The notes below the pieces were generated by a model. It was not told where the DNA came from, ran no database searches, and saw only the letters and a list, made by a program, of their open reading frames with translations. A stretch of DNA of 64,000 bases from a phage. Positions within the stretch are counted from its first letter, which is position 1. Every line of letters starts with the position of its first letter. The position numbers and the translations under genes were made by a program. The stretch lies in the sequence record PZ151149.1, one strand, 5' to 3'. This document shows, piece by piece, positions 28,173-39,870 of this stretch.

Positions 28173-28180
28173 TATAAATA
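28173..28180 (+). promoter_or_regulatory. T4-type late promoter TATAAATA for gene 34
   Basis: Exact TATAAATA 28 nt upstream of ATG, followed by AAAGGAG SD. Confidence 0.6.
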
Positions 28181-28208: not shown

Positions 28209-31200
28209 ATGGCAGATTTTTCTCAACATTTCAAGGCCACATTTGGCTTTGACGCTGGTAATGAAAAGGTCGTCAATGTAGCATTGGCTGATAAGAATGT
28301 CAACACCGATGCGGTCAACGTTGAATTTTTCAATTACCATAATGGTATTACTCAGTATGACACAACTCGCGGTTATGATCAATATGGCACTACAATCTAT
28401 CAAAACCGCCCGTATTATGCAAAAGAAGATATCACAAAGCCAGCAGGTGATTTTGACCCGACTAAATGGCAAGCACTGCGCACGGACCCACGTTGGGATT
28501 ATGTTGCAGCAACTTCCGGTGATACTCCTTTAAAGTCCGGTGATTATATCGCAGCGGACTGTCAGTTTGCAAACTTGACATTCTCAATGCCTACTAATCC
28601 GGTAGATGGCGACACTATAACAGTAAAAGATATCGGTGGCAAGTGCGGTGTTAATGAGTTATCGTTCCTTTCGGTTGGTCATGAGTTCTATCATAACGGT
28701 GTGGTAAACAACCGCAAATGGTACTGTACTACCCCTTACGCTATGAACTACTTCATTTTTGTTCGCAACCGTTGGCACGTCTACCAGACCGGAACAGAGC
28801 CACGCGGGGTATATGCACAACCATCTATCGACCCGATCCAGATGCAAAACGGTGATCAGGTATTCCGTCGTAGTTCTTTAGGTAACATTGTTTTGATGCT
28901 TCCTAAGTTTGCTAATAACGGTGATATGATTCAGACTACCGATCTTGACGGATTAACCGCAACCAACCATGTTACAGTAAAAGTACATGAAGGTGCGCAA
29001 GAACAATCAATTGGCACTTTCGGGGTAAAAGAAATTGTTGGTAAGCGTAGCGGTCATGGTGTATTCATCTTTGACAAACCGGAAAACTTATGGCGTTTGT
29101 GGGATGGTGATCAGTCTGTTCGATTGAATCCTATCATTAGTGATACTCGATTATCCCCTAATAGCTATGTTGCAGTATTTGGTGATCGTGATGTTACCTT
29201 GACTTTACCGACCAACGTCGAGCATGGTGATCGTATTCAAGTTTCTATGCAGTATATGCACGGAAACCAGACTTGCCGAATCATTACCACAGAAGAGGAT
29301 ACAAAAATCCTCATGCAGAAAAACATGGTTCAGTTTCCTAAGCGTAGCGAGTATCCATTCAATGGGACCGATACATGGAAGGAAGTGTCTGAATTATCTT
29401 TTAATGCTGCCGATGATTATGTTCCTTATCTGGAGTTCTCTTATTCAGAAGGTGATGATGGTAAGAAACACTGGTTGGTAGCACATGCGCACCCGATTGT
29501 AGAACGAGTAGATCCGACTCGTAAAGATCGTGTTGGTGTTATTGCGCTTGCAACTCAGGAAGAAACCAACAAAAACCATGAAGATAATCCTAGCGACGAA
29601 GTTGCAGTAACGCCAAAAATGCTTGCCAATAAGACTGCCAACGAAACGCGTCGAGGTATTGCTAGAATCGCTACTCAAGAAGAAACGCACCAACATACAG
29701 GGGCAAATTTTCTTGATGATGTGATCGTAACTCCTAAAAAACTAAATGCGTGTGTTGCTTCCGAAGAACATCGAGGCGTGTTGGAGATTGCAACTCAGCT
29801 TGAAACCAACGAAGGTTTAGACGATACACGCGCAATCACCCCTAAGAAATTAGAGGAACGTCGCGCGTCCGAGGATCTTGCTGGTATCGCTGAAATTGTT
29901 CAGATGGGCGGTATCGCTGCCGAACGACGTGGCGAAGCTGGTACAGGGGTTTATAACATCAACGACCATGCTAAAATCGTTACTCCGCAAAACATCAATG
30001 AAGTTAAAGCTACTGAAACATCTCGCGGTGTTGGGTATCTGGCGACGGATGCGGAAGTTCAAGGGGCGACGGAATCAACCCCGCAAGATGCATTGCTGAT
30101 CACTACTCGCACGTTAACTAAGCGTACTGCTACCGAATCCCGTACTGGTATCGCTGAAATTGCTACGCAGGAAGAAACTAACTTAGGCCAAAGTGATAGC
30201 CATATCATCACGCCTAAAAAACTGCATACTCGCCGTGCAACTGAAACTTTACATGGTTTAGCAGAAATTGCAACTCAACCGGAATTTGACGCAGGTCGTG
30301 ACGATGCTCGCATTTCTACCCCATTGAAGATTAAAACCTTCTTTGAGAATGCACAGCGTTTGAGAGTAGACCCGACTCAGGGGCTTAACCTTACTGGCGA
30401 TCTATGGCAAGGTATCACGATCAGCGGTCTGGATGCAACCGAAGATACAAAAGGTGTCGCGAAAGTTGCCACCGCTCAGCTTACAGATGCGGGAGAAGAT
30501 GACGCCACGATCATTACTCCTAAAAAGCTGCAAGGCAAAAAGGCCACCGAAGGTAAAGAAGGTATCATCCGCGTTGGTACTCAAGCCGAAACCGTCGATG
30601 GTGCACTGGACAATGTAGCAATTTCTCCGAAGAACTTCAAATATGTTGTTCAGACAGAGGATACATGGAAAGCAACCGAAGCGCGTCGCGGATTCCTGAA
30701 AGTAGCAACACAAGAAAACTGTTTTGTTGGTGACAATCTGCAAGGTTCGACTCAAGAACTTGATGATTATCAACATGACGGAATTGCGGTAACTCCGAAA
30801 GGATTAAACTACGCTCTTGCTAATTTCTTACCTAAGATGGCAACCGCCCAGAATAGTTTGAAATTGGGTAACGTAGAGGCCGCTAAATGGGCGCGTAGAG
30901 ACATTGACCAGACTATCGAGAGCAATTACACCTTTAAGAAAAACGTCAACGTAGAGGGCGATTTAGAGTGCTTAAAATCAGGTTCTTTTGAAACTCTCTT
31001 TGTGACTAAGAACTCAACCGATGATCCGAGTAATGGTCATCTGGTATTGGGTGAGCGTGGCGTTGATGGTCACACCGGAATTACATTGCATGGCACTACC
31101 TTAGAACAGGGCGTTGAAAACTCATGGTCTATTATCGTTGGTGGTACTGGAACGGCACAAACAGTTAATAGTGATGCTATCGCTTTCTGTAAGATTGACG

Positions 31201-31949
31201 ATTCTGGATCTGTTGAGCACTACTCCTTTGCTATGGAACATGACGGCGATGCGTTAGCATATAGAGACTTCATAGCAGGTCGTAACCTGTATGCGAAACA
31301 AGGCGGTTTATATATTGTAGACCACTCTAATCCGGCAATGACTCGCTCTCCAGACGGTATGTTGAATATCGGTCATGGTGGAAGTGTTAACATCAAAGCA
31401 GGTTATCAGAATCTGACTACAGAGATCGCGGGGGAGAAGTATCAGATCGTCCACGCAGGAAACGCAGACGAAGTTCTCAACCGTCAGTTTGTCAAGAATG
31501 CTGGCGATACGATGACCGGAAAGCTGATTATGGACAATGCGCCTATTGTTTCTGTTAAGCATGAAGCTAGCGCGGCAACCGCTCCGGCAATCGGTAACAT
31601 CGGTTTCTGGAACATGCGAGTAACTACCCAAAACATCAAAGAAACCTATCCAGAAAAGAAAAATGGTACATTGATGCAATGGGGTACTGACGAGGACGGG
31701 CTTACTCAGATTTGGTCCCCTGATGGTACTCACAAGCATTATATCCGTTCCGGTACAGATGGTCAATGGACCGCATGGGGTGAGATTTACACCAAACAGA
31801 ACAAGCCTACCGCTCAGGAAATCGGGGCAGTGGTTGCAGATGGCGGTTTAATGAACTCTATGACGGTTCGTGACTGGATCAAGGTTGGTAATGTTAAAAT
31901 TGTTGCCAATAATCTGACTCGTACCGTAGATTTTATCTGGGAAGACTAA
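28209..31949 (+). CDS. 34: long tail fibre proximal subunit (gp34-like, 1246 aa)
   Basis: Size as T4 gp34; multiple about-30-aa fibre repeats (GIAEIATQEET ... ITPKKL) and GDTMTGKL motif; late promoter. Confidence 0.8.
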   Translation: MADFSQHFKATFGFDAGNEKVVNVALADKNVNTDAVNVEFFNYHNGITQYDTTRGYDQYGTTIYQNRPYYAKEDITKPAGDFDPTKWQALRTDPRWDYVAATSGDTPLKSGDYIAADCQFANLTFSMPTNPVDGDTITVKDIGGKCGVNELSFLSVGHEFYHNGVVNNRKWYCTTPYAMNYFIFVRNRWHVYQTGTEPRGVYAQPSIDPIQMQNGDQVFRRSSLGNIVLMLPKFANNGDMIQTTDLDGLTATNHVTVKVHEGAQEQSIGTFGVKEIVGKRSGHGVFIFDKPENLWRLWDGDQSVRLNPIISDTRLSPNSYVAVFGDRDVTLTLPTNVEHGDRIQVSMQYMHGNQTCRIITTEEDTKILMQKNMVQFPKRSEYPFNGTDTWKEVSELSFNAADDYVPYLEFSYSEGDDGKKHWLVAHAHPIVERVDPTRKDRVGVIALATQEETNKNHEDNPSDEVAVTPKMLANKTANETRRGIARIATQEETHQHTGANFLDDVIVTPKKLNACVASEEHRGVLEIATQLETNEGLDDTRAITPKKLEERRASEDLAGIAEIVQMGGIAAERRGEAGTGVYNINDHAKIVTPQNINEVKATETSRGVGYLATDAEVQGATESTPQDALLITTRTLTKRTATESRTGIAEIATQEETNLGQSDSHIITPKKLHTRRATETLHGLAEIATQPEFDAGRDDARISTPLKIKTFFENAQRLRVDPTQGLNLTGDLWQGITISGLDATEDTKGVAKVATAQLTDAGEDDATIITPKKLQGKKATEGKEGIIRVGTQAETVDGALDNVAISPKNFKYVVQTEDTWKATEARRGFLKVATQENCFVGDNLQGSTQELDDYQHDGIAVTPKGLNYALANFLPKMATAQNSLKLGNVEAAKWARRDIDQTIESNYTFKKNVNVEGDLECLKSGSFETLFVTKNSTDDPSNGHLVLGERGVDGHTGITLHGTTLEQGVENSWSIIVGGTGTAQTVNSDAIAFCKIDDSGSVEHYSFAMEHDGDALAYRDFIAGRNLYAKQGGLYIVDHSNPAMTRSPDGMLNIGHGGSVNIKAGYQNLTTEIAGEKYQIVHAGNADEVLNRQFVKNAGDTMTGKLIMDNAPIVSVKHEASAATAPAIGNIGFWNMRVTTQNIKETYPEKKNGTLMQWGTDEDGLTQIWSPDGTHKHYIRSGTDGQWTAWGEIYTKQNKPTAQEIGAVVADGGLMNSMTVRDWIKVGNVKIVANNLTRTVDFIWED

Positions 31950-33283: not shown

Positions 33284-33291
33284 TATAAATA
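33284..33291 (+). promoter_or_regulatory. T4-type late promoter TATAAATA for gene 36
   Basis: Exact TATAAATA 33 nt upstream of ATG, GAGG SD. Confidence 0.6.
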
Positions 33292-33324: not shown

Positions 33325-34815
33325 ATGGCAGATTTGAAACATGGATCTACTGTAGGCGGATCTCCCATTTGGACGCAAGGAAACTTGACGATCCAGCCAG
33401 CGGGGGATCAGCTTTTCTACAAAGGTCATAAAATCTATACCGCTTTTGATAAACCTTCGGCTGCCGATTTTGATGCTGTTAGTGCTAAAGACGGTGGCAC
33501 ATTTCAAAAGCAGGTCCATTTTGAGGAAGGTTTAAGCGTCGGTAGTGCATCGGCTGGAGAAACCAAAAAGAACGGGATCTTTAAAGGAAATAGTGATGCG
33601 GCTAACTTTGATGGTGTAAGTTGGGGTTTGCATTCGTGGAAATCTATTGGTTTTGTTAATGCTCGTGATGATGTTATCATGGCTTATATTGACACTACCA
33701 CAGGTGATTTTAAAACTAAAGGGACTATCGAAGGGACAGCCATTAAAGACACAGGTCAACGCGTCTATAGCCCTGTTAATAAACCAACGAATAATGATTT
33801 AGATTTGGTGTCTCGTCGCGGTGATACCCTCACAGGAACATATAATTTAAACACTGTCACTGTTAAACTATCGGTTGATTCGAAATTAATTGCAAGGGAA
33901 CGTGATTTAATTAATTTTGATGCGACTAAGATCTATTATGGTAACGTTCTTGATACGTTGGTCTTCCGAAGTAAAGATGAGCCTACCATTTTTGTTAATG
34001 GTAAAGAAGGTCGTTTTTATCACACCAACAATAAACCAACTAAAGCCGATGTGGGACTAGGCAATGTCACCAATGATGCACAGGTTAAACGTGCTGGTGA
34101 TATTATGGAAGGTAACTTGCAAGCGCCTAGAATGTTGGCGACAAACGATCCGGCTGGACCTAATGAATTGGTTCGTTTGAGCTACTTTGAGAAAAAATCA
34201 ATGGTAGCAAATCCAACCATCATTGGAAACGTTGATTGGAACACTCTTATTAATCGCGGTATCTATCGTGTGGAAAATGCTGGGTCAGGTACTAATAAGC
34301 CGTCTGATAGCTATTATAACGGCGTTTTGATGGTATATCGCCCAGAAGATGCGGTCGGTACTCGTCGAATTGTTCAGGTGTATTATCCTGAATCTATTGA
34401 TCATCCGATGTGCTGGCGTTCGTGTTCTAATGAATCATGGACTGCATGGAACTATGTAGATCACCGTAAATTGGCTGATATTCGCTATGTTAACGTAACT
34501 GGCGATACCATGACAGGACCGTTAACTGTTCCGGCTGCAAACGGTGTTAGAACAGCTAGAGGTGCATATAATGGTGATAACTACTATGCTGGGTTAAATA
34601 GTGCCGATGGTACGGCTATGATTCACCGTATAAGCGATATTAAAGCCACCGAAAAATTGGGTATTACCCATGATTCTAAGGCTGTTTTCATCAAATCGCG
34701 TGGAAATACTCAGGACACCGACCGTTATGAACTTTATCACGAAGGGCATAAACCTACCCCTGCCGAAGTTGGCGCGGTTCCACTTAATGCGGTGATTGAT
34801 TTTGGTACTTTCTAA
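33325..34815 (+). CDS. 36: long tail fibre distal-half proximal subunit (gp36-like, enlarged, 496 aa)
   Basis: Fibre motifs NKPT ... DVG, GDIMEGNL, VTGDTMTGPL; position between 35 and 37. Confidence 0.65.
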   Translation: MADLKHGSTVGGSPIWTQGNLTIQPAGDQLFYKGHKIYTAFDKPSAADFDAVSAKDGGTFQKQVHFEEGLSVGSASAGETKKNGIFKGNSDAANFDGVSWGLHSWKSIGFVNARDDVIMAYIDTTTGDFKTKGTIEGTAIKDTGQRVYSPVNKPTNNDLDLVSRRGDTLTGTYNLNTVTVKLSVDSKLIARERDLINFDATKIYYGNVLDTLVFRSKDEPTIFVNGKEGRFYHTNNKPTKADVGLGNVTNDAQVKRAGDIMEGNLQAPRMLATNDPAGPNELVRLSYFEKKSMVANPTIIGNVDWNTLINRGIYRVENAGSGTNKPSDSYYNGVLMVYRPEDAVGTRRIVQVYYPESIDHPMCWRSCSNESWTAWNYVDHRKLADIRYVNVTGDTMTGPLTVPAANGVRTARGAYNGDNYYAGLNSADGTAMIHRISDIKATEKLGITHDSKAVFIKSRGNTQDTDRYELYHEGHKPTPAEVGAVPLNAVIDFGTF

Positions 34816-34821
34816 TTTTAT

Positions 34822-34845
34822 GCGGGGTTCTCTCCCCGCTTTTCT
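34822..34845 (+). terminator. rho-independent terminator after gene 36
   Basis: GCGGGG-TTCTCT-CCCCGC followed by TTTTCT. Confidence 0.55.
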
Positions 34846-34885: not shown

Positions 34886-37800
34886 ATGGCAGATTTAAGC
34901 AGAATCCAATTTAAACGCACTAGCACTAAAGGTCGTAAACCTGATGCTAGTACGATGTATCCGGGGGAATTAGCAATCAACCTTGCGGATCAATACATGT
35001 TTACTAAAAATGATTCGGGGACTCTCATCAATTTAAGTTGTCCTCCGGTGTATAACCGTGACGTTGTAATGGCGGGTAAGGTTAAAGGAAATGATTATAT
35101 TTTAAGCAAAACCGCTAATTATTTTGAAGACCAAACCGCGCGAGATCTTAATTATTTTGGTGCGTTTCGACCGAATAATGCTGATGGTTGGTCTAACTTG
35201 ATTCTGAACATTCCTCACCCCAGCGGTAAAGCACACGGTCGCGGGTTTGAATTTCAATATGGTTCTAGTTCCTCTCAGGTTAAAACCTATGGCTTTGATA
35301 AAGATGGTGCTAAGCGATTCAGCTTTCGCATGTATCATGAAGGTGATAAACCTACCCCATCGGAATTGAACGTTTACAGCAAACAAGAAGTTGATCGCAT
35401 GTTTGTTAAAAACGTTAAAATGTCAACTCCTAGCAGTGCAACAGGGTATTTCAAAATTGCTACCGCTATGATCCCACAGCAAGGAAAAATGGTATTTATT
35501 CGTATCTATGGTGGTAATGGATACAACGTTAACTCTCCGACTCAAGTTGATTTTGTAGAAATCGTGATTCTTGGTGGGAATGGAAATCCTAAAGGTGTTA
35601 CTGTTGCTGCATATCGAAGAAATTCTTTAAATCAACTTGAAGTGTTTGCTATTAATACATCCGGTGACAACTATGATATCTACGTAAAATATGGTCGGTA
35701 TACCGATAATGTTATTGTAGAATTTGGTAAAACGGTTGGTGTTAATTTAACTGTTCATGATGTTCCAGATTTTTCGGAAGCAAAACCTGCTGGTACTACC
35801 TTTGAAGGTCGTATTATTACCATGTTTAATACTGAAAATAAACGAGGTTCTTTGTATTTCGATCAAAACACGCAAGAGACTTATGATATTATCAGTTTGT
35901 GTGACTATTCAGGTACTGGCAAAAAATATATTCGTAAATTCCGCAGTGGACCAAGCTACGCAATCTGGCATGAAACTGTTCAAGACGACACATATCGTCT
36001 ATCAACTGGTACTACCGATTCTAACGAAGTTCTACGAATCACAGGTCGTACCATGTATACCGGAAAACTGGTAGTGGATGCAGGAAGTAATGCTATTCGT
36101 ATGCTGCGACCTACCGGACAAAGTAACTATCTGGAATATGTGGATAATCGCAACGGTGCTAGCAAGCGTCAAGGATGGATCGGTTTTGGTAGTATTGAAA
36201 ATGATAACTTCCAATGGTATAGCGACGTAGGTAAAAACTCATTACAGTTAGATACTACTGGTCAAATATCATTAACCACAGGTGCAACAAAAATTGTATA
36301 CGCTAATGGTCAATATGTATCGGCTAACTCTGATGCGTATCGTATGATCTACGGTAATTATGGTGCATTCTGGCGTAATGATGGTGCTAGCGTTTATCTT
36401 CTGTCTACTGCTGAAAATGACAAATTTGGTGCTTGGAATACCTACCGACCGTTTATCTATAATTTAGTATCTGGAGACGTTAAATTAGGTGGTACTAACA
36501 CCGCATGTTGTTTGTATCTGGGAATTGATGGTAGTACCCGTATCGAGGATAAATTAGTTTTCAGGGCGGGATCTCGTCAATCAATGGACTACTTAGAATT
36601 TGTTCATTGGGGGGCAAGCAATACAGGTCGAAATAACGTTTTAAGTCTTCGTGACTCAAAAGGATTTTTAGCAGAATTTGAGCGTAAAGGTGATAACACC
36701 ATTCAAAATACATTCTTCGGAAGATTTAAAGTCAATGGTGATTCTAACGCTATTACCATTAATGCTCCTACTGATTCTGATGCTGTTTATGTGAAAGGTA
36801 CTTGTAATGATGTAGATAACTGGTATATCGGTAAAGGTGGTGCTGGTAATGGATTAGTTTTTTGTAGTTATAAGACTAATGCGGCTGTTCATCTCACAGA
36901 TAATGGTGAGGTTTTATTAGCCCCACAAAACACCGCAATTGTTAACATCAATCGCGACCGTATACACATCAACGGTACACAGTGGGTGGCAAATCAGCCA
37001 CATGGCTGGGGTAATCAGTGGCTGTCCGAAGCTCCTATATTCGTTGATTTTGGTACTGGTGTTCCATATGATACCTATATGCCAATCATTAAAGCCCGTA
37101 GCCAAACTGCTGGCGGTTATGCAACTAAGGCCGATTTTGGTATATATCGTCGTGGTGCTGGTGATAATTGGGGTTGGGGTGATGCTGTTATTCGTGTCGG
37201 TTCTGCCGAAAGTGCCGATTCTTCACATCCAAATGCTAGATTCATGTTCCAAGCAAATGGAGATTTTAGAGCACCTGCTGGCCTCCGTGCTGGTGTTAAC
37301 TTGGGTGTTGGTACTGATCCTGCATTGGGTGGACATTCTATTGCTATCGGTGATAATGACACTGGCTTAATGTGGGGTGGTGATGGTCGTATTAACCTGC
37401 TTGCTAACGGACAGCATATTGCGTCATGGGGTGTTTTCCATCAAGAACATCCTGGGCTATGGTCTGTCGGTGCTGGGTTCTGGACAGAAGTCGATAAAGC
37501 GATTATTTCTCACGGTCACTTGATTCAGGCGAATGACAGCTATTCTACATATGTTCGTGACATTTATATCCGTTCGGATATTCGCGTGAAGAAAGACCTA
37601 GTTAAATTTGAAAATGCATCTAAGACACTTTCAAAAATTAACGGTTACAAATATCTTCAAAAGCGCGGGACCAATGAAGACGGTAGCGAACGTTGGGAAG
37701 AAAACGCTGGTTTGATTGCTCAGGAAGTTCAAGCTATTTTGCCGGAATTGGTTGAAGGCGATCCAGATAGCGAAAACCTTCTTCGTTTGAACTATAACGG

Positions 37801-37942
37801 TGTTGTTGGTTTAAATACTGCTGCGATCAACGAACACACCGAAGAAATTGCACTTCTTAAAGAAGAAAATAACCGTCTGAAAGAAGAAAATAAAATTCTT
37901 CATGATCGTCTTGCTGCAATTGAAGCAAAATTATTTGGTTAA
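34886..37942 (+). CDS. 37: long tail fibre distal subunit (gp37-like) with C-terminal intramolecular chaperone domain (1018 aa)
   Basis: N-terminus MADLSRIQFKRTS ... GELAINLADQ; C-terminal about 122 aa with SDIRVKKD motif, GLIAQEVQ and coiled coil typical of S74 self-cleaving chaperone domains. Confidence 0.8.
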   Translation: MADLSRIQFKRTSTKGRKPDASTMYPGELAINLADQYMFTKNDSGTLINLSCPPVYNRDVVMAGKVKGNDYILSKTANYFEDQTARDLNYFGAFRPNNADGWSNLILNIPHPSGKAHGRGFEFQYGSSSSQVKTYGFDKDGAKRFSFRMYHEGDKPTPSELNVYSKQEVDRMFVKNVKMSTPSSATGYFKIATAMIPQQGKMVFIRIYGGNGYNVNSPTQVDFVEIVILGGNGNPKGVTVAAYRRNSLNQLEVFAINTSGDNYDIYVKYGRYTDNVIVEFGKTVGVNLTVHDVPDFSEAKPAGTTFEGRIITMFNTENKRGSLYFDQNTQETYDIISLCDYSGTGKKYIRKFRSGPSYAIWHETVQDDTYRLSTGTTDSNEVLRITGRTMYTGKLVVDAGSNAIRMLRPTGQSNYLEYVDNRNGASKRQGWIGFGSIENDNFQWYSDVGKNSLQLDTTGQISLTTGATKIVYANGQYVSANSDAYRMIYGNYGAFWRNDGASVYLLSTAENDKFGAWNTYRPFIYNLVSGDVKLGGTNTACCLYLGIDGSTRIEDKLVFRAGSRQSMDYLEFVHWGASNTGRNNVLSLRDSKGFLAEFERKGDNTIQNTFFGRFKVNGDSNAITINAPTDSDAVYVKGTCNDVDNWYIGKGGAGNGLVFCSYKTNAAVHLTDNGEVLLAPQNTAIVNINRDRIHINGTQWVANQPHGWGNQWLSEAPIFVDFGTGVPYDTYMPIIKARSQTAGGYATKADFGIYRRGAGDNWGWGDAVIRVGSAESADSSHPNARFMFQANGDFRAPAGLRAGVNLGVGTDPALGGHSIAIGDNDTGLMWGGDGRINLLANGQHIASWGVFHQEHPGLWSVGAGFWTEVDKAIISHGHLIQANDSYSTYVRDIYIRSDIRVKKDLVKFENASKTLSKINGYKYLQKRGTNEDGSERWEENAGLIAQEVQAILPELVEGDPDSENLLRLNYNGVVGLNTAAINEHTEEIALLKEENNRLKEENKILHDRLAAIEAKLFG

Positions 37943-37950
37943 TTTAAATG

Positions 37951-37968
37951 GCGGGGAGAAATCCCCGC
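37951..37968 (+). other. stem-loop between gene 37 and first Gly-rich paralog
   Basis: GCGGGGA-GAAA-TCCCCGC, no U-tract; followed by AAGGA SD. Confidence 0.3.
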
Positions 37969-37980
37969 TAAGGATCTTAA

Positions 37981-38277
37981 ATGGGCTATTGGGTAAGTAA
38001 TGAACAAGGCACTAAAATAGATGCTGTAAAATGGCATGTTTTTGATATTCCTAATGGATATGTCCCCGGTCGTGCTGGTGTTGCCGTTTTGCGGCATACT
38101 GCTAATGATGTTTGGGGTGATATTCATATTTCCGTTGACGGTGTGGTCGCCGCGCGTCGTCGTGGTGGTGGGGATTGGGGATTTACGGTTAATGCGTTTG
38201 TTCCTGCTGGATGTACTGTCACCTTTGGTCATGGTGGTGGCGGTGGTATTGAATACTTTAAATTTATGGAGTTTTAA
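37981..38277 (+). CDS. glycine-rich small protein, paralog 1 (98 aa)
   Basis: MGYWV ... VFDIPNGYVPGRAGV ... RRGGGDWGFTV ... GHGGGGGIEYFKF; first of three tandem paralogs. Confidence 0.5.
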   Translation: MGYWVSNEQGTKIDAVKWHVFDIPNGYVPGRAGVAVLRHTANDVWGDIHISVDGVVAARRRGGGDWGFTVNAFVPAGCTVTFGHGGGGGIEYFKFMEF

Positions 38278-38279
38278 TT

Positions 38280-38585
38280 ATGGCTGGATGGGTTGCGGGA
38301 AGAATGGCTAATGCTATTAGCATTTATGCTAATGGTGGGTGGTTTGGTATCCCTAATGGTTGGGTGGCTGATTCATGCGGTATTGTGTCTGTTCATGCCG
38401 AAGCAGTTGGCGGTGGAGGTGACTTGGACGCCGAATTATATGTAAACGGTACTCTCGAATCAGGTCATCACGCTGGTAATGCCGGAAGTTGGGGAGCTAG
38501 TTCTTTAGTTGGTGTTGGCGCTACTGTCAGTTTTAGCATTGGTAAAGGAAGTTTACATCACTTCCAATTTAGGAGAATGCATTAA
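38280..38585 (+). CDS. glycine-rich small protein, paralog 2 (101 aa)
   Basis: WFGIPNGWVADSCGIV ... AVGGGGDLDAELYVNG; ATG 2 nt after previous stop. Confidence 0.5.
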   Translation: MAGWVAGRMANAISIYANGGWFGIPNGWVADSCGIVSVHAEAVGGGGDLDAELYVNGTLESGHHAGNAGSWGASSLVGVGATVSFSIGKGSLHHFQFRRMH

Positions 38586-38887
38586 TGGGATATTGGGTGT
38601 ATGGCGTTTTAGACAATAAAGCCGGTAAAGCGAATCAGGGATGGTTTGATATTCCTAACGGGTGGACGCCTGACGCTTTCGGTACGGTTTCATTTGGTGC
38701 TAGTTCTGCTGGTGGTGGCGGTGGTGACTCAGAATTGCTTTTGCATGGCTTTTGTGTGTCTGGAAGTCATAAGGGTCATGATTGGGGACAGATCCATTCT
38801 TGTATTGTGCCGCAGGGAGTAACGATCACGGTAACTACAAACAGGGGTATTTCCCATCTTCGTTATAGACGCTTGAGCAACCGTTAA
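38585..38887 (+). CDS. glycine-rich small protein, paralog 3 (100 aa)
   Basis: MGYWVYG ... WFDIPNGWTPDAFGTV ... SAGGGGGDSELLLHG; TAATG overlap with paralog 2. Confidence 0.5.
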   Translation: MGYWVYGVLDNKAGKANQGWFDIPNGWTPDAFGTVSFGASSAGGGGGDSELLLHGFCVSGSHKGHDWGQIHSCIVPQGVTITVTTNRGISHLRYRRLSNR

Positions 38888-38940
38888 AAAAAGAATTAAG
38901 GAAAACTCCCAGGGAAGGGAACTACTAAGGAGAAACGGCT

Positions 38941-39180
38941 ATGGTCTATAATATCGTCATGGGTGCTTTGTCTAATTTCGGAATGAAACTATTGTCAAAG
39001 TTAATTAGTGAAAAGATGCTCACTAAAATTTTCTTCTATTGCGCTCGTCGTCTTGCGGCTTATACTAATACGCCAATTGATGATCGTTTTGTGGAAGAAC
39101 TTTATAAGGAGTTTAATAAAGATCAGTCAGAAGATAGTAACGAGCAAGATAAACCTAGTGATAGTCAACTACCTAAATAA
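38941..39180 (+). CDS. hypothetical protein (79 aa)
   Basis: ATG with AAGGAG SD; hydrophobic N-terminus, acidic C-terminus. Confidence 0.4.
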   Translation: MVYNIVMGALSNFGMKLLSKLISEKMLTKIFFYCARRLAAYTNTPIDDRFVEELYKEFNKDQSEDSNEQDKPSDSQLPK

Positions 39181-39213: not shown

Positions 39214-39870
39214 ATGCAAGTTTCTGAAAAAGGGAAAGACTTTGCTATCTCAAATGTCCTGCGCGCTATTTTCACAACTAAAAGCACGGAGTTGCTCGTA
39301 CTTCGTGTTTTTGCTGCCGTCGTGTTGTCTATATTAGCATTTGTCGTTTATAGTAAAAACGAGTTATTTGCGCTTTATAAAGAGACTCGTTATGAGACTT
39401 ATGCTCACGTTCTCCAGGTAGAGAAAGACCGCAATTTTGATAATGCAGCACAGGAGCAGTTACAGATAGTTCATGTGTCGGCTGATGCCGATTTTTCTGC
39501 TGTTTTTAGTTTTCGTCCGAAAAACCTAAACTATTTTGTTGATTTGGTGGCATATGAAGGAAAGCTACCGCATACAATCGATGAAAAAAATTTAGGCGGA
39601 TTCCCTATCAATAAAACGAGTGAAGAATATCGTAGGCATCTTTTAGGTAAATCCTATTTTACCGATAAAGATTTCCAGTATATTCCATCAAGAGAAAAGA
39701 AATTAGAGAGTATCGATATAGGGGTTATGTATTCTTGTCCTATATTCAATCTCGACAATGTCTATTCTGGTAGTATCTCCATTGCATGGAAGAATAAACC
39801 GGATATTGACATTGAGAATTTAGATACTCTTTGCAATCAATCTGCCAGAATCCTCGGAAGGATTAGATAA
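39214..39870 (+). CDS. t: holin T
   Basis: 218 aa (same as T4 T); single N-terminal TMD; long blocks matching recalled T4 T (LQIVHVSADADFSAVFSFRPKNLNYFVDLVAYEGKLP, YSCPIFNLDNVYSGSI, ARILGRIR). Confidence 0.85.
   Translation: MQVSEKGKDFAISNVLRAIFTTKSTELLVLRVFAAVVLSILAFVVYSKNELFALYKETRYETYAHVLQVEKDRNFDNAAQEQLQIVHVSADADFSAVFSFRPKNLNYFVDLVAYEGKLPHTIDEKNLGGFPINKTSEEYRRHLLGKSYFTDKDFQYIPSREKKLESIDIGVMYSCPIFNLDNVYSGSISIAWKNKPDIDIENLDTLCNQSARILGRIR

Follow-up and report, generated by a model that had tools for sequence, protein, structure and literature searches.

A three-gene family in the place of gp38 behind the predicted self-cleaving distal tail fibre of a Krischvirus coliphage

What caps the long tail fibre of a T4-like phage when its distal subunit carries a chaperone of its own and the expected adhesin gene is not found beside it? 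The question is raised by the stretch of phage DNA analysed here (sequence record PZ151149.1; 64,000 nucleotides (nt), hereafter the window), which is DNA of a Krischvirus (RB49-like, Straboviridae) coliphage. The distal fibre subunit gp37 encoded in it ends in a Peptidase_S74-type intramolecular chaperone. Fibres with such a gp37 normally depend on a tip adhesin encoded by another gene, gp38, which was to be expected here too; the interval between gp37 and a Dc5-like open reading frame (ORF) is occupied by three small genes, A, B and C (the trio), each with a good ribosome-binding site. In the genus Krischvirus, a gp37 with a self-cleaving chaperone has been described before. New is the uncharacterised three-gene family that travels with S74 fibres and stands in the place of gp38. 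The features on which the argument turns are the following (aa, amino acids; dN/dS, ratio of nonsynonymous to synonymous substitution rates).

34886..37942, + strand: gp37, large distal subunit of the long tail fibre, mosaic; 1018 codons plus stop, ATG start
37574..37939, + strand: predicted intramolecular chaperone of gp37, aa 897-1018; S74 core 897-956, helical/coiled-coil tail from about 976
37981..38277, + strand: trio gene A, 98 aa; predicted N-terminal helix and jelly-roll beta-sandwich
38280..38585, + strand: trio gene B, 101 aa; paralogue of A and C, starting 2 nt past the A stop; dN/dS 0.05-0.22
38585..38887, + strand: trio gene C, 100 aa; paralogue of A and B, its start overlapping the B stop by 1 nt (TAATG)

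The ORFs downstream of gp37 in the window have no match to Pfam GP38 or Gp38_N, and tblastn with two types of gp38 found no match in the window and no homologue at an E-value (E) of <=1 in the complete genome of phage G2248. In RB49-type phages gp38 lies about 57 kb from gp37, as described likewise in earlier work (PMC3157838; bioRxiv 10.64898/2026.04.02.716166). This remote slot was surveyed in 59 Krischvirus records with the empty slot of G2248, flanked by G2248_00078 and G2248_00079, as the probe, and it proved to be filled by gp38 in 44 of them and empty in 13, two further records matching only partially. The empty-slot genomes comprise three with an intact trio (G2248, G37-3 and UPWr_E1) and ten with gp38 adjoining gp37 (kvi, FL20, FL15, MIZ4, MIZ5, G2494, G5211, Skers, KMB43 and LF73P4). 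In KFS-EC (locus L011, NC_055757; 4676-5105) the remote slot is filled and the trio is broken, gene A being fused to the second half of C at glycine-rich motifs by a deletion and a frameshift, with loss of B. The survey thus shows that an intact trio and gp38 are mutually exclusive among the 59 Krischvirus records.

Two other accounts of the trio were tried and rejected. The trio is not a divergent gp38: it has no GP38 or Gp38_N match, its hhalign probability against the gp38 of kvi is 0.3%, and it is predicted to fold as a jelly roll instead of a polyglycine sandwich. Nor does it co-vary with one type of fibre tip, since it pairs with three. The S16-like tip is accompanied by gp38 in S16 and by the trio in the window, G2248, UPWr_E1 and one prophage (L008); the Delraymugoa-like tip, by remote gp38 in Delraymugoa and by the trio in G37-3 and most prophages; and the kvi-like tip, by gp38 in kvi and by the trio in a metagenomic locus (L027). 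About 1.4 kb from its empty remote slot, G2248 (L019, MK327932; 6894-9038) has an extra hypothetical ORF of 714 aa, G2248_00084, of which the corresponding region of Delraymugoa has no equivalent and which could be another receptor-binding or accessory protein.

The trio family is rare, forming 37 clusters among 5.8 billion proteins and 19 representatives among 1.84 billion. It was found in 4 of 50,697 phage records, all of them Krischvirus, and in 15 of 5426 complete E. coli genomes, always on the chromosome and annotated as three hypothetical proteins in a row. Wherever the upstream gene could be read (23 of 23 loci: the four Krischvirus loci of the window, G2248, UPWr_E1 and G37-3, 13 enterobacterial prophages or contigs, and six distant metagenomic loci), the genes stand in the order A-B-C directly 3' of a fibre gene ending in S74, with intergenic gaps of <=4 nt or overlaps. 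The enterobacterial loci come from E. coli and Salmonella and are siphovirus-like prophages or contigs related to these; in them the trio is tightly packed, on the same strand, between the fibre gene and the tail tube gene of the late operon. The cassette also occurs on a T7-type fibre: in a metagenomic contig (SRR24146890_393561; L024, 106-2959) a 615-aa fibre with an N-terminal Phage_T7_tail domain and a Peptidase_S74 domain is followed by distant A-B-C homologues.

Some further details of the prophage loci (L030, 5255-9907; L005, L007-L010, L013-L017) may be added. Their S74 fibres are 1029-1235 aa long, and fibre and trio are placed between head genes (portal, a protease-capsid fusion and three small ORFs) and the tail tube gene, an odd site for a fibre gene.

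The proteins A, B and C are 27-31% identical in pairwise comparison, and orthologues of each are kept in other phages. They match no Pfam family at E<=1, the known fibre chaperone families included, and in PHROG they have only a weak match to phrog_18834 (E 0.002), a family of unassigned function; no signal peptide or membrane segment is evident in their sequences. All three genes are under purifying selection (dN/dS 0.05-0.42), by which gene-wide positive selection was rejected. Their evolutionary rates differ, dN/dS between close relatives being 0.05-0.07 for B and 0.17-0.42 for A. Variability in A is concentrated in the helix, at aa 37-55 and at aa 80-86, which suggests variable loops, although not decisively. 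A literature search on the trio, on UPWr_E1 and on heterotrimeric or TNF-like fibre adhesins found no account of the trio.

Two independent AlphaFold2 models, of A and of C (predicted local distance difference test scores 84.7 and 82.6), agree in having a helix at the N-terminus (aa 2-12) and, after it, a jelly-roll beta-sandwich of seven strands. The trio models superpose on C1q/TNF-type jelly rolls, to which fold the proteins may accordingly be assigned at the level of prediction. Their best matches in PDB include C1q, TNF, BclA and phage receptor-binding heads, and the best named viral matches are tail fibres.

The other half of the proposed tip is gp37 itself. The original prediction described it as a mosaic, gp37-like distal fibre ending in some 122 residues of S74 chaperone with the motif SDIRVKKD, and a profile search bears this out: aa 897-956 score 45.2 bits (E 1.2e-11) against Peptidase_S74 (PF13884), the gathering cut-off being 22. 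The motif occurs once in gp37 and starts at aa 897, so that Ser897 opens the domain and Lys902 follows five residues on; the serine at codon 897 proposed there as the cleavage site is indeed encoded (TCG), and the motif residues around it do not vary in the fibres compared. The predicted cut and the tip that it would expose are located as follows.

37574..37576, + strand: Ser897 codon (TCG), predicted nucleophile and cleavage site Arg896|Ser897; the Lys902 codon is at 37589-37591
37319..37573, + strand: S16-type fibre tip with the GDNDTG motif, aa 812-896, aligned to residues 21-92 of 6F45_A

The catalytic role of the S74 Ser and Lys is established for endoNF and T5 pb1. Ser897, Asp898, Arg900 and Lys902 are invariant in five otherwise very different Krischvirus gp37 variants, the Ser, Asp, Arg and Lys of the SD.R.K motif are kept in 23 of 23 related fibres, and the residues at the cut common to all fibre tips compared read [ND]D[VI]x[IVMY]R|SD.R.K. 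The best solved relative is the C-terminus of gp37 from Salmonella phage S16 (6F45_A; aa 812-1004, E 1.9e-44), relative to which the tip of the window gp37 carries a 12-residue insertion; taken by itself, the chaperone segment aligns with its S16 counterpart at E 5.9e-30 and about 50% identity. It also matches the MYRF auto-processing domain, weakly, and has no direct sequence match at E<=10 to the PDB entries of endosialidase, T5 pb1 or GA-1. The coiled coil foreseen at the very end agrees with weak ZapB and Leu_zip matches at aa 981-1016 and with heptad-like hydrophobic spacing in the last ~40 residues, where a helical tail is predicted. By comparison with these homologues, the chaperone would very probably release itself at Arg896|Ser897 after trimerisation. 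The computed masses are 112.59 kDa for full-length gp37, 13.76 kDa for the 122 residues Ser897-Gly1018 and 98.85 kDa for the remaining 896.

The trio and the adjoining part of gp37 have a common history. Window positions 36377 to 38901, a length of 2.53 kb, are 93.2% identical in DNA to a prophage in E. coli UTME-12 (L030, NZ_CP157095). The left junction of the shared segment, at about nt 36377, is inside the Gp34_trimer domain of gp37; the right junction is 14 nt past trio gene C, Krischvirus backbone identity returning at 38884-38888. These data show a single 2.5-kb cassette (36377-38901), made up of the C-terminal half of gp37 with its chaperone and of the trio, which has been exchanged with temperate E. 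coli prophages. The trio region (37981-38887) has a guanine-plus-cytosine (G+C) content of 46%, against 40% for the window, due in part to glycine codons and consistent with foreign (prophage) origin. Identity of gp37 to its relatives shifts along the protein: aa 1-150 are 96-98% identical to G37-3, the nearest relative of aa 1-540 overall is Delraymugoa, aa 551-650 are 96-98% identical to kvi, aa 851-950 are 90-96% identical to G2248 and UPWr_E1, and the whole of aa 551-1018 is 74-100% identical to an E. coli prophage fibre. The extreme C-terminus of the fibre, ...RLAAIEAKL(F)G, was considered as a docking signal for the trio and dropped, as the Salmonella and metagenomic loci are without it; it probably reflects linkage at a recombination junction.

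A scheme in three steps may be proposed. gp37 would trimerise with the help of its C-terminal S74 chaperone, which would then cut itself off through the Ser897/Lys902 dyad, leaving a 98.9-kDa fibre that ends in the S16-type tip and a free 13.8-kDa fragment. The products of A, B and C, and not gp38, would cap the freed tip; they would be made in equal amounts because of translational coupling, and one of each would probably sit on the three-fold tip as a receptor-binding knob. The third step is the one shown above, the exchange of the whole cassette with temperate E. coli prophages. That the trio caps the exposed tip and supplies receptor binding is the interpretation to which comparative genomics and the predicted fold incline us, if by no great degree. 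Its more specific form, in which the three paralogues build a 1:1:1 heterotrimeric C1q/TNF-like knob on the cleaved tip and this knob is the actual receptor-binding protein, is the most economical arrangement, because there are always three genes, always in the same order, on a three-fold tip; it is offered tentatively, as one possibility.

Several points weigh against this proposal. The position of the trio on the tip is argued from gene comparisons and modelled structures, and the cleavage of gp37 from homology; the jelly-roll match of the trio models is a generic one. The window ends about 28 kb short of the remote gp38 slot, whose flanking sequences were likewise looked for in the window and not found, and the closest relatives are what suggests that gp38 is absent from the window phage as a whole. 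The exclusion pattern comes from only three independent Krischvirus genomes with an intact trio. Finally, the Trp of the N-terminal helix is invariant in 29 of 29 enterobacterial trio members, and the same position is Leu, Met or Asn in distant members; a correspondence between this Trp and the three Trp plugs of gp38 therefore fails in the distant members and is kept as a weak analogy only.

Instead of staying on the virion, the trio might act as assembly factors that help the chaperone to fold or release the tip, the cleaved gp37 tip itself binding the receptor. Genes for chaperones often lie just 3' of fibre genes (T4 gp38, the Tfa proteins of Mu and P2, Pam3 gp25; PMC9608196); Pam3 gp25 and Tfa are likewise built of a beta-sandwich and a trimerising helix, the strict association with S74 fibres would fit a role in chaperone function equally well, and KFS-EC indicates that a Krischvirus is viable when its trio is broken. 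However, the fibre has its own chaperone already, the trio lacks similarity to any Tfa or gp38-chaperone family, and its fold matches ligand-binding heads rather than known fibre chaperones. Since the exclusion of gp38 across the 59 genomes and the presence of gp38 in KFS-EC would also be left unexplained, we consider such a role rather unlikely. Binding by the trio could, on the other hand, take a different form from the heterotrimeric knob: A, B and C may be three alternative adhesins, one kind per tip as a monomer or homotrimer, so that a virion would display up to three specificities, as a bet-hedging version of gp38. Independent adhesins should vary in copy number, whereas exactly three genes in fixed A-B-C order are seen at every locus and in three phage morphotypes; tight translational coupling suggests a complex of fixed ratio, and the sole locus with a loss, that of KFS-EC, has gp38 instead. 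Even so, gp38 caps its trimer as a single molecule (PMC6851490), and the low identity between the paralogues and the unequal rates of A and B are what separate adhesins might be expected to show. On balance this arrangement seems decidedly unlikely.

Two further explanations touch the premises of the scheme. Fibre loci are known hot spots for the insertion of accessory genes, and the G+C content of the trio is above that of the window, as would suit cargo unrelated to the fibre, such as genes for superinfection exclusion or anti-defence that came to lie beside a recombination hot spot. Cargo would not readily account for a linkage that persists across myovirus, siphovirus-like prophage and T7-like contexts, for the same-strand packing of the trio ahead of the tail tube gene in the prophage late operon, or for mutual exclusion with gp38, and the proteins lack an evident signal peptide or membrane segment; we regard it as very improbable. 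It is also conceivable, the cleavage of the window gp37 being deduced from homology, that its S74 domain does not cut and that the 1018-aa protein persists intact in the virion. The four motif residues are all kept, however, the S74 score is far above the Pfam threshold, and close homologues have been reported to be cleaved (PMC9569957; PMC3157838), which makes a non-cleaving domain improbable in the extreme.

The remainder of gp37 is that of a distal subunit of the T4 type. Its best PHROG match is phrog_1699, 'long tail fiber protein distal subunit' (E 2e-160), and the N-terminal domain and the position in a gp34-gp35-gp36-gp37 cluster upstream of holin t are those of T4-type gp37. Two domains precede the exchanged part or span its left junction.

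34886..35035, + strand: N-terminal docking motif IQFKR...GELAINL...FTK, aa 1-50
36176..36460, + strand: Gp34_trimer-type trimerisation domain, aa 431-525 (Pfam PF21446, E 1.3e-28)

The N-terminus had been likened to an anchor motif of unrelated phage fibres. In part this holds, since IQFKR...GE.A.NL.D also heads the fibres of unrelated siphovirus-like prophages; on the other hand it is an ordinary gp37 N-terminus, 56% identical to T4 gp37 over aa 1-50 of both proteins and matched in 1102 phage records. Between the trimerisation domain and the tip, aa 621-674 resemble Pfam gp37_trimer (PF20744) below threshold (20.3 bits, cut-off 21.7).

The gene order around the locus is gp34 (28209-31949), gp35, gp36, gp37, the trio, the Dc5-like ORF and holin t, with the following neighbouring features.

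33284..33291, + strand: T4-type late promoter motif TATAAATA upstream of gp36, exact match
33325..34815, + strand: gp36-like distal connector of the long tail fibre, 496 aa (Pfam Phage_T4_gp36, E 5e-6, and synteny)
37951..37968, + strand: GC-rich hairpin GCGGGGAGAAATCCCCGC between gp37 and trio gene A, without a T-run on the + strand
38941-39180: Dc5-like ORF, 79 aa (phrog_402), about 98% identical in DNA across Krischvirus
39214-39870: holin t (Pfam, E 3e-60)

The Pfam gp36 domain spans only aa 57-164 of the 496 residues of the gp36 homologue, and T4 gp36 is much shorter, about 220 aa (PMC3157838). The motif TATAAATA has four exact matches in the window, another being at 28173 before gp34, a count no higher than in shuffled sequence; by its position only, the copy before gp36 is the probable start of a gp36-gp37-trio late transcript. 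A second hairpin between gp36 and gp37 (34822-34839) has the same GCGGGG/CCCCGC stem as the first and another loop, and is followed by a T-run. Both are annotated as putative terminators in G2248; the gp36:gp37:trio ratios might be set by them, through attenuation or through an effect on RNA stability. The Dc5-like ORF follows the variable adhesin slot directly and marks the right-hand recombination boundary.

The identity of the tip protein is of practical importance. Both the engineering and the prediction of host range in T4-like phages work largely through gp38 or the gp37 tip, and tools trained on gp38 would give no prediction for the window phage, G2248, G37-3 and UPWr_E1, the last of which appears in papers on phage application in poultry. 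According to a recent proposal, many of the fibres that bear a chaperone must depend on 'undetected external adhesin partners' (preprint 10.64898/2026.05.12.724579), and the trio family is a concrete candidate for such a partner. If it is one, it would be a compact, portable specificity module of 0.9 kb and would show clearly that temperate and virulent phages exchange fibre modules. If, in addition, the three proteins form a heterotrimer, they would provide a second solution to the task of gp38, unrelated to gp38, and the first multi-gene heteromeric fibre-tip adhesin, passed as one cassette among myoviruses, siphovirus-like prophages and T7-like phages. As with monomeric gp38, the fibre would lose its three-fold symmetry, so that an asymmetric receptor could be engaged.

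Among known systems, the trio appears as a variation on the scheme of a cleaved fibre with a separately encoded cap. In RB49, T2, T6 and S16, gp37 is cleaved and then capped by gp38 (PMC9569957; PMC3157838; PMC6851490). Most T-even-like phages have a self-cleaving gp37 of this kind, T2, T6 and S16 being examples (PMC3157838; PMC6851490; bioRxiv 10.64898/2026.05.12.724579), and the T4 fibre is of a less common type (PMC6851490). The original suggestion of a different fibre architecture in a T4-like backbone has therefore to be turned round: a self-cleaving gp37 is usual for T-even relatives, and T4 is the exception. The S16 complex of (gp37)3 with gp38 (PDB 6F45; also T2 and T6) is like the window in its gp37 C-terminus, the GDNDTG tip and the S74 motif SD.R.KKD, and the logic of its tip, in which the fibre loses the chaperone and is then capped by the product of another gene (PMC6851490), resembles that proposed here. 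It differs in having one gp38 with Gp38_N and a polyglycine sandwich, where the slot of the window holds three jelly-roll paralogues of about 100 aa. S16 gp38 attaches by three Trp, one per helix, inserted into three equivalent pockets at the base of gp37 (PMC6851490); each trio member has a single N-terminal helix. RB43 gp38 (174 aa) illustrates that a specificity domain without relation to that of T6 gp38 can occupy the adhesin slot (PMC3157838), and it retains the Gp38_N attachment domain that the trio members lack.

Within the genus, RB49 and other Krischvirus phages share with the window the backbone gp34-gp35-gp36-gp37-Dc5-holin; the N-terminal half of their gp37 is 77-86% identical to that of the window in DNA, and all gp37 variants end in the S74 chaperone. 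What fills the adhesin role differs: remote gp38 in phages of the RB49 type, gp38 adjoining gp37 in the kvi type, and the trio in the window, G2248, UPWr_E1 and G37-3. The endosialidase (K1F/endoNF) tailspike, T5 pb1 and the GA-1 neck appendage resemble gp37 in having Peptidase_S74 at the C-terminus of a trimeric fibre, and are linked to it by the family HMM (hidden Markov model) only. In these three, too, the motif Ser...Lys(+5) opens the domain. Their receptor is bound by the mature C-terminal domain itself, and they are not known to carry a separate cap.

The nearest architectural analogue of the trio members is the fibre protein gp24 of cyanophage Pam3 (PDB 7YPX), a small receptor-binding protein in which an N-terminal helix, used in docking and in trimerisation, is followed by a TNF-like jelly roll and then by a glycine-rich part (PMC9608196). 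Every trio member has these elements in the same order, with no similarity to gp24 in sequence. Pam3 gp24 is the product of one gene, forms a homotrimer docked on the baseplate and has an external chaperone, gp25, whereas the trio consists of three genes that follow an S74 fibre. Also among the closest systems to the trio are the C1q globular head, composed of A, B and C chains, and the trimers of the TNF family, such as lymphotoxin a1b2.

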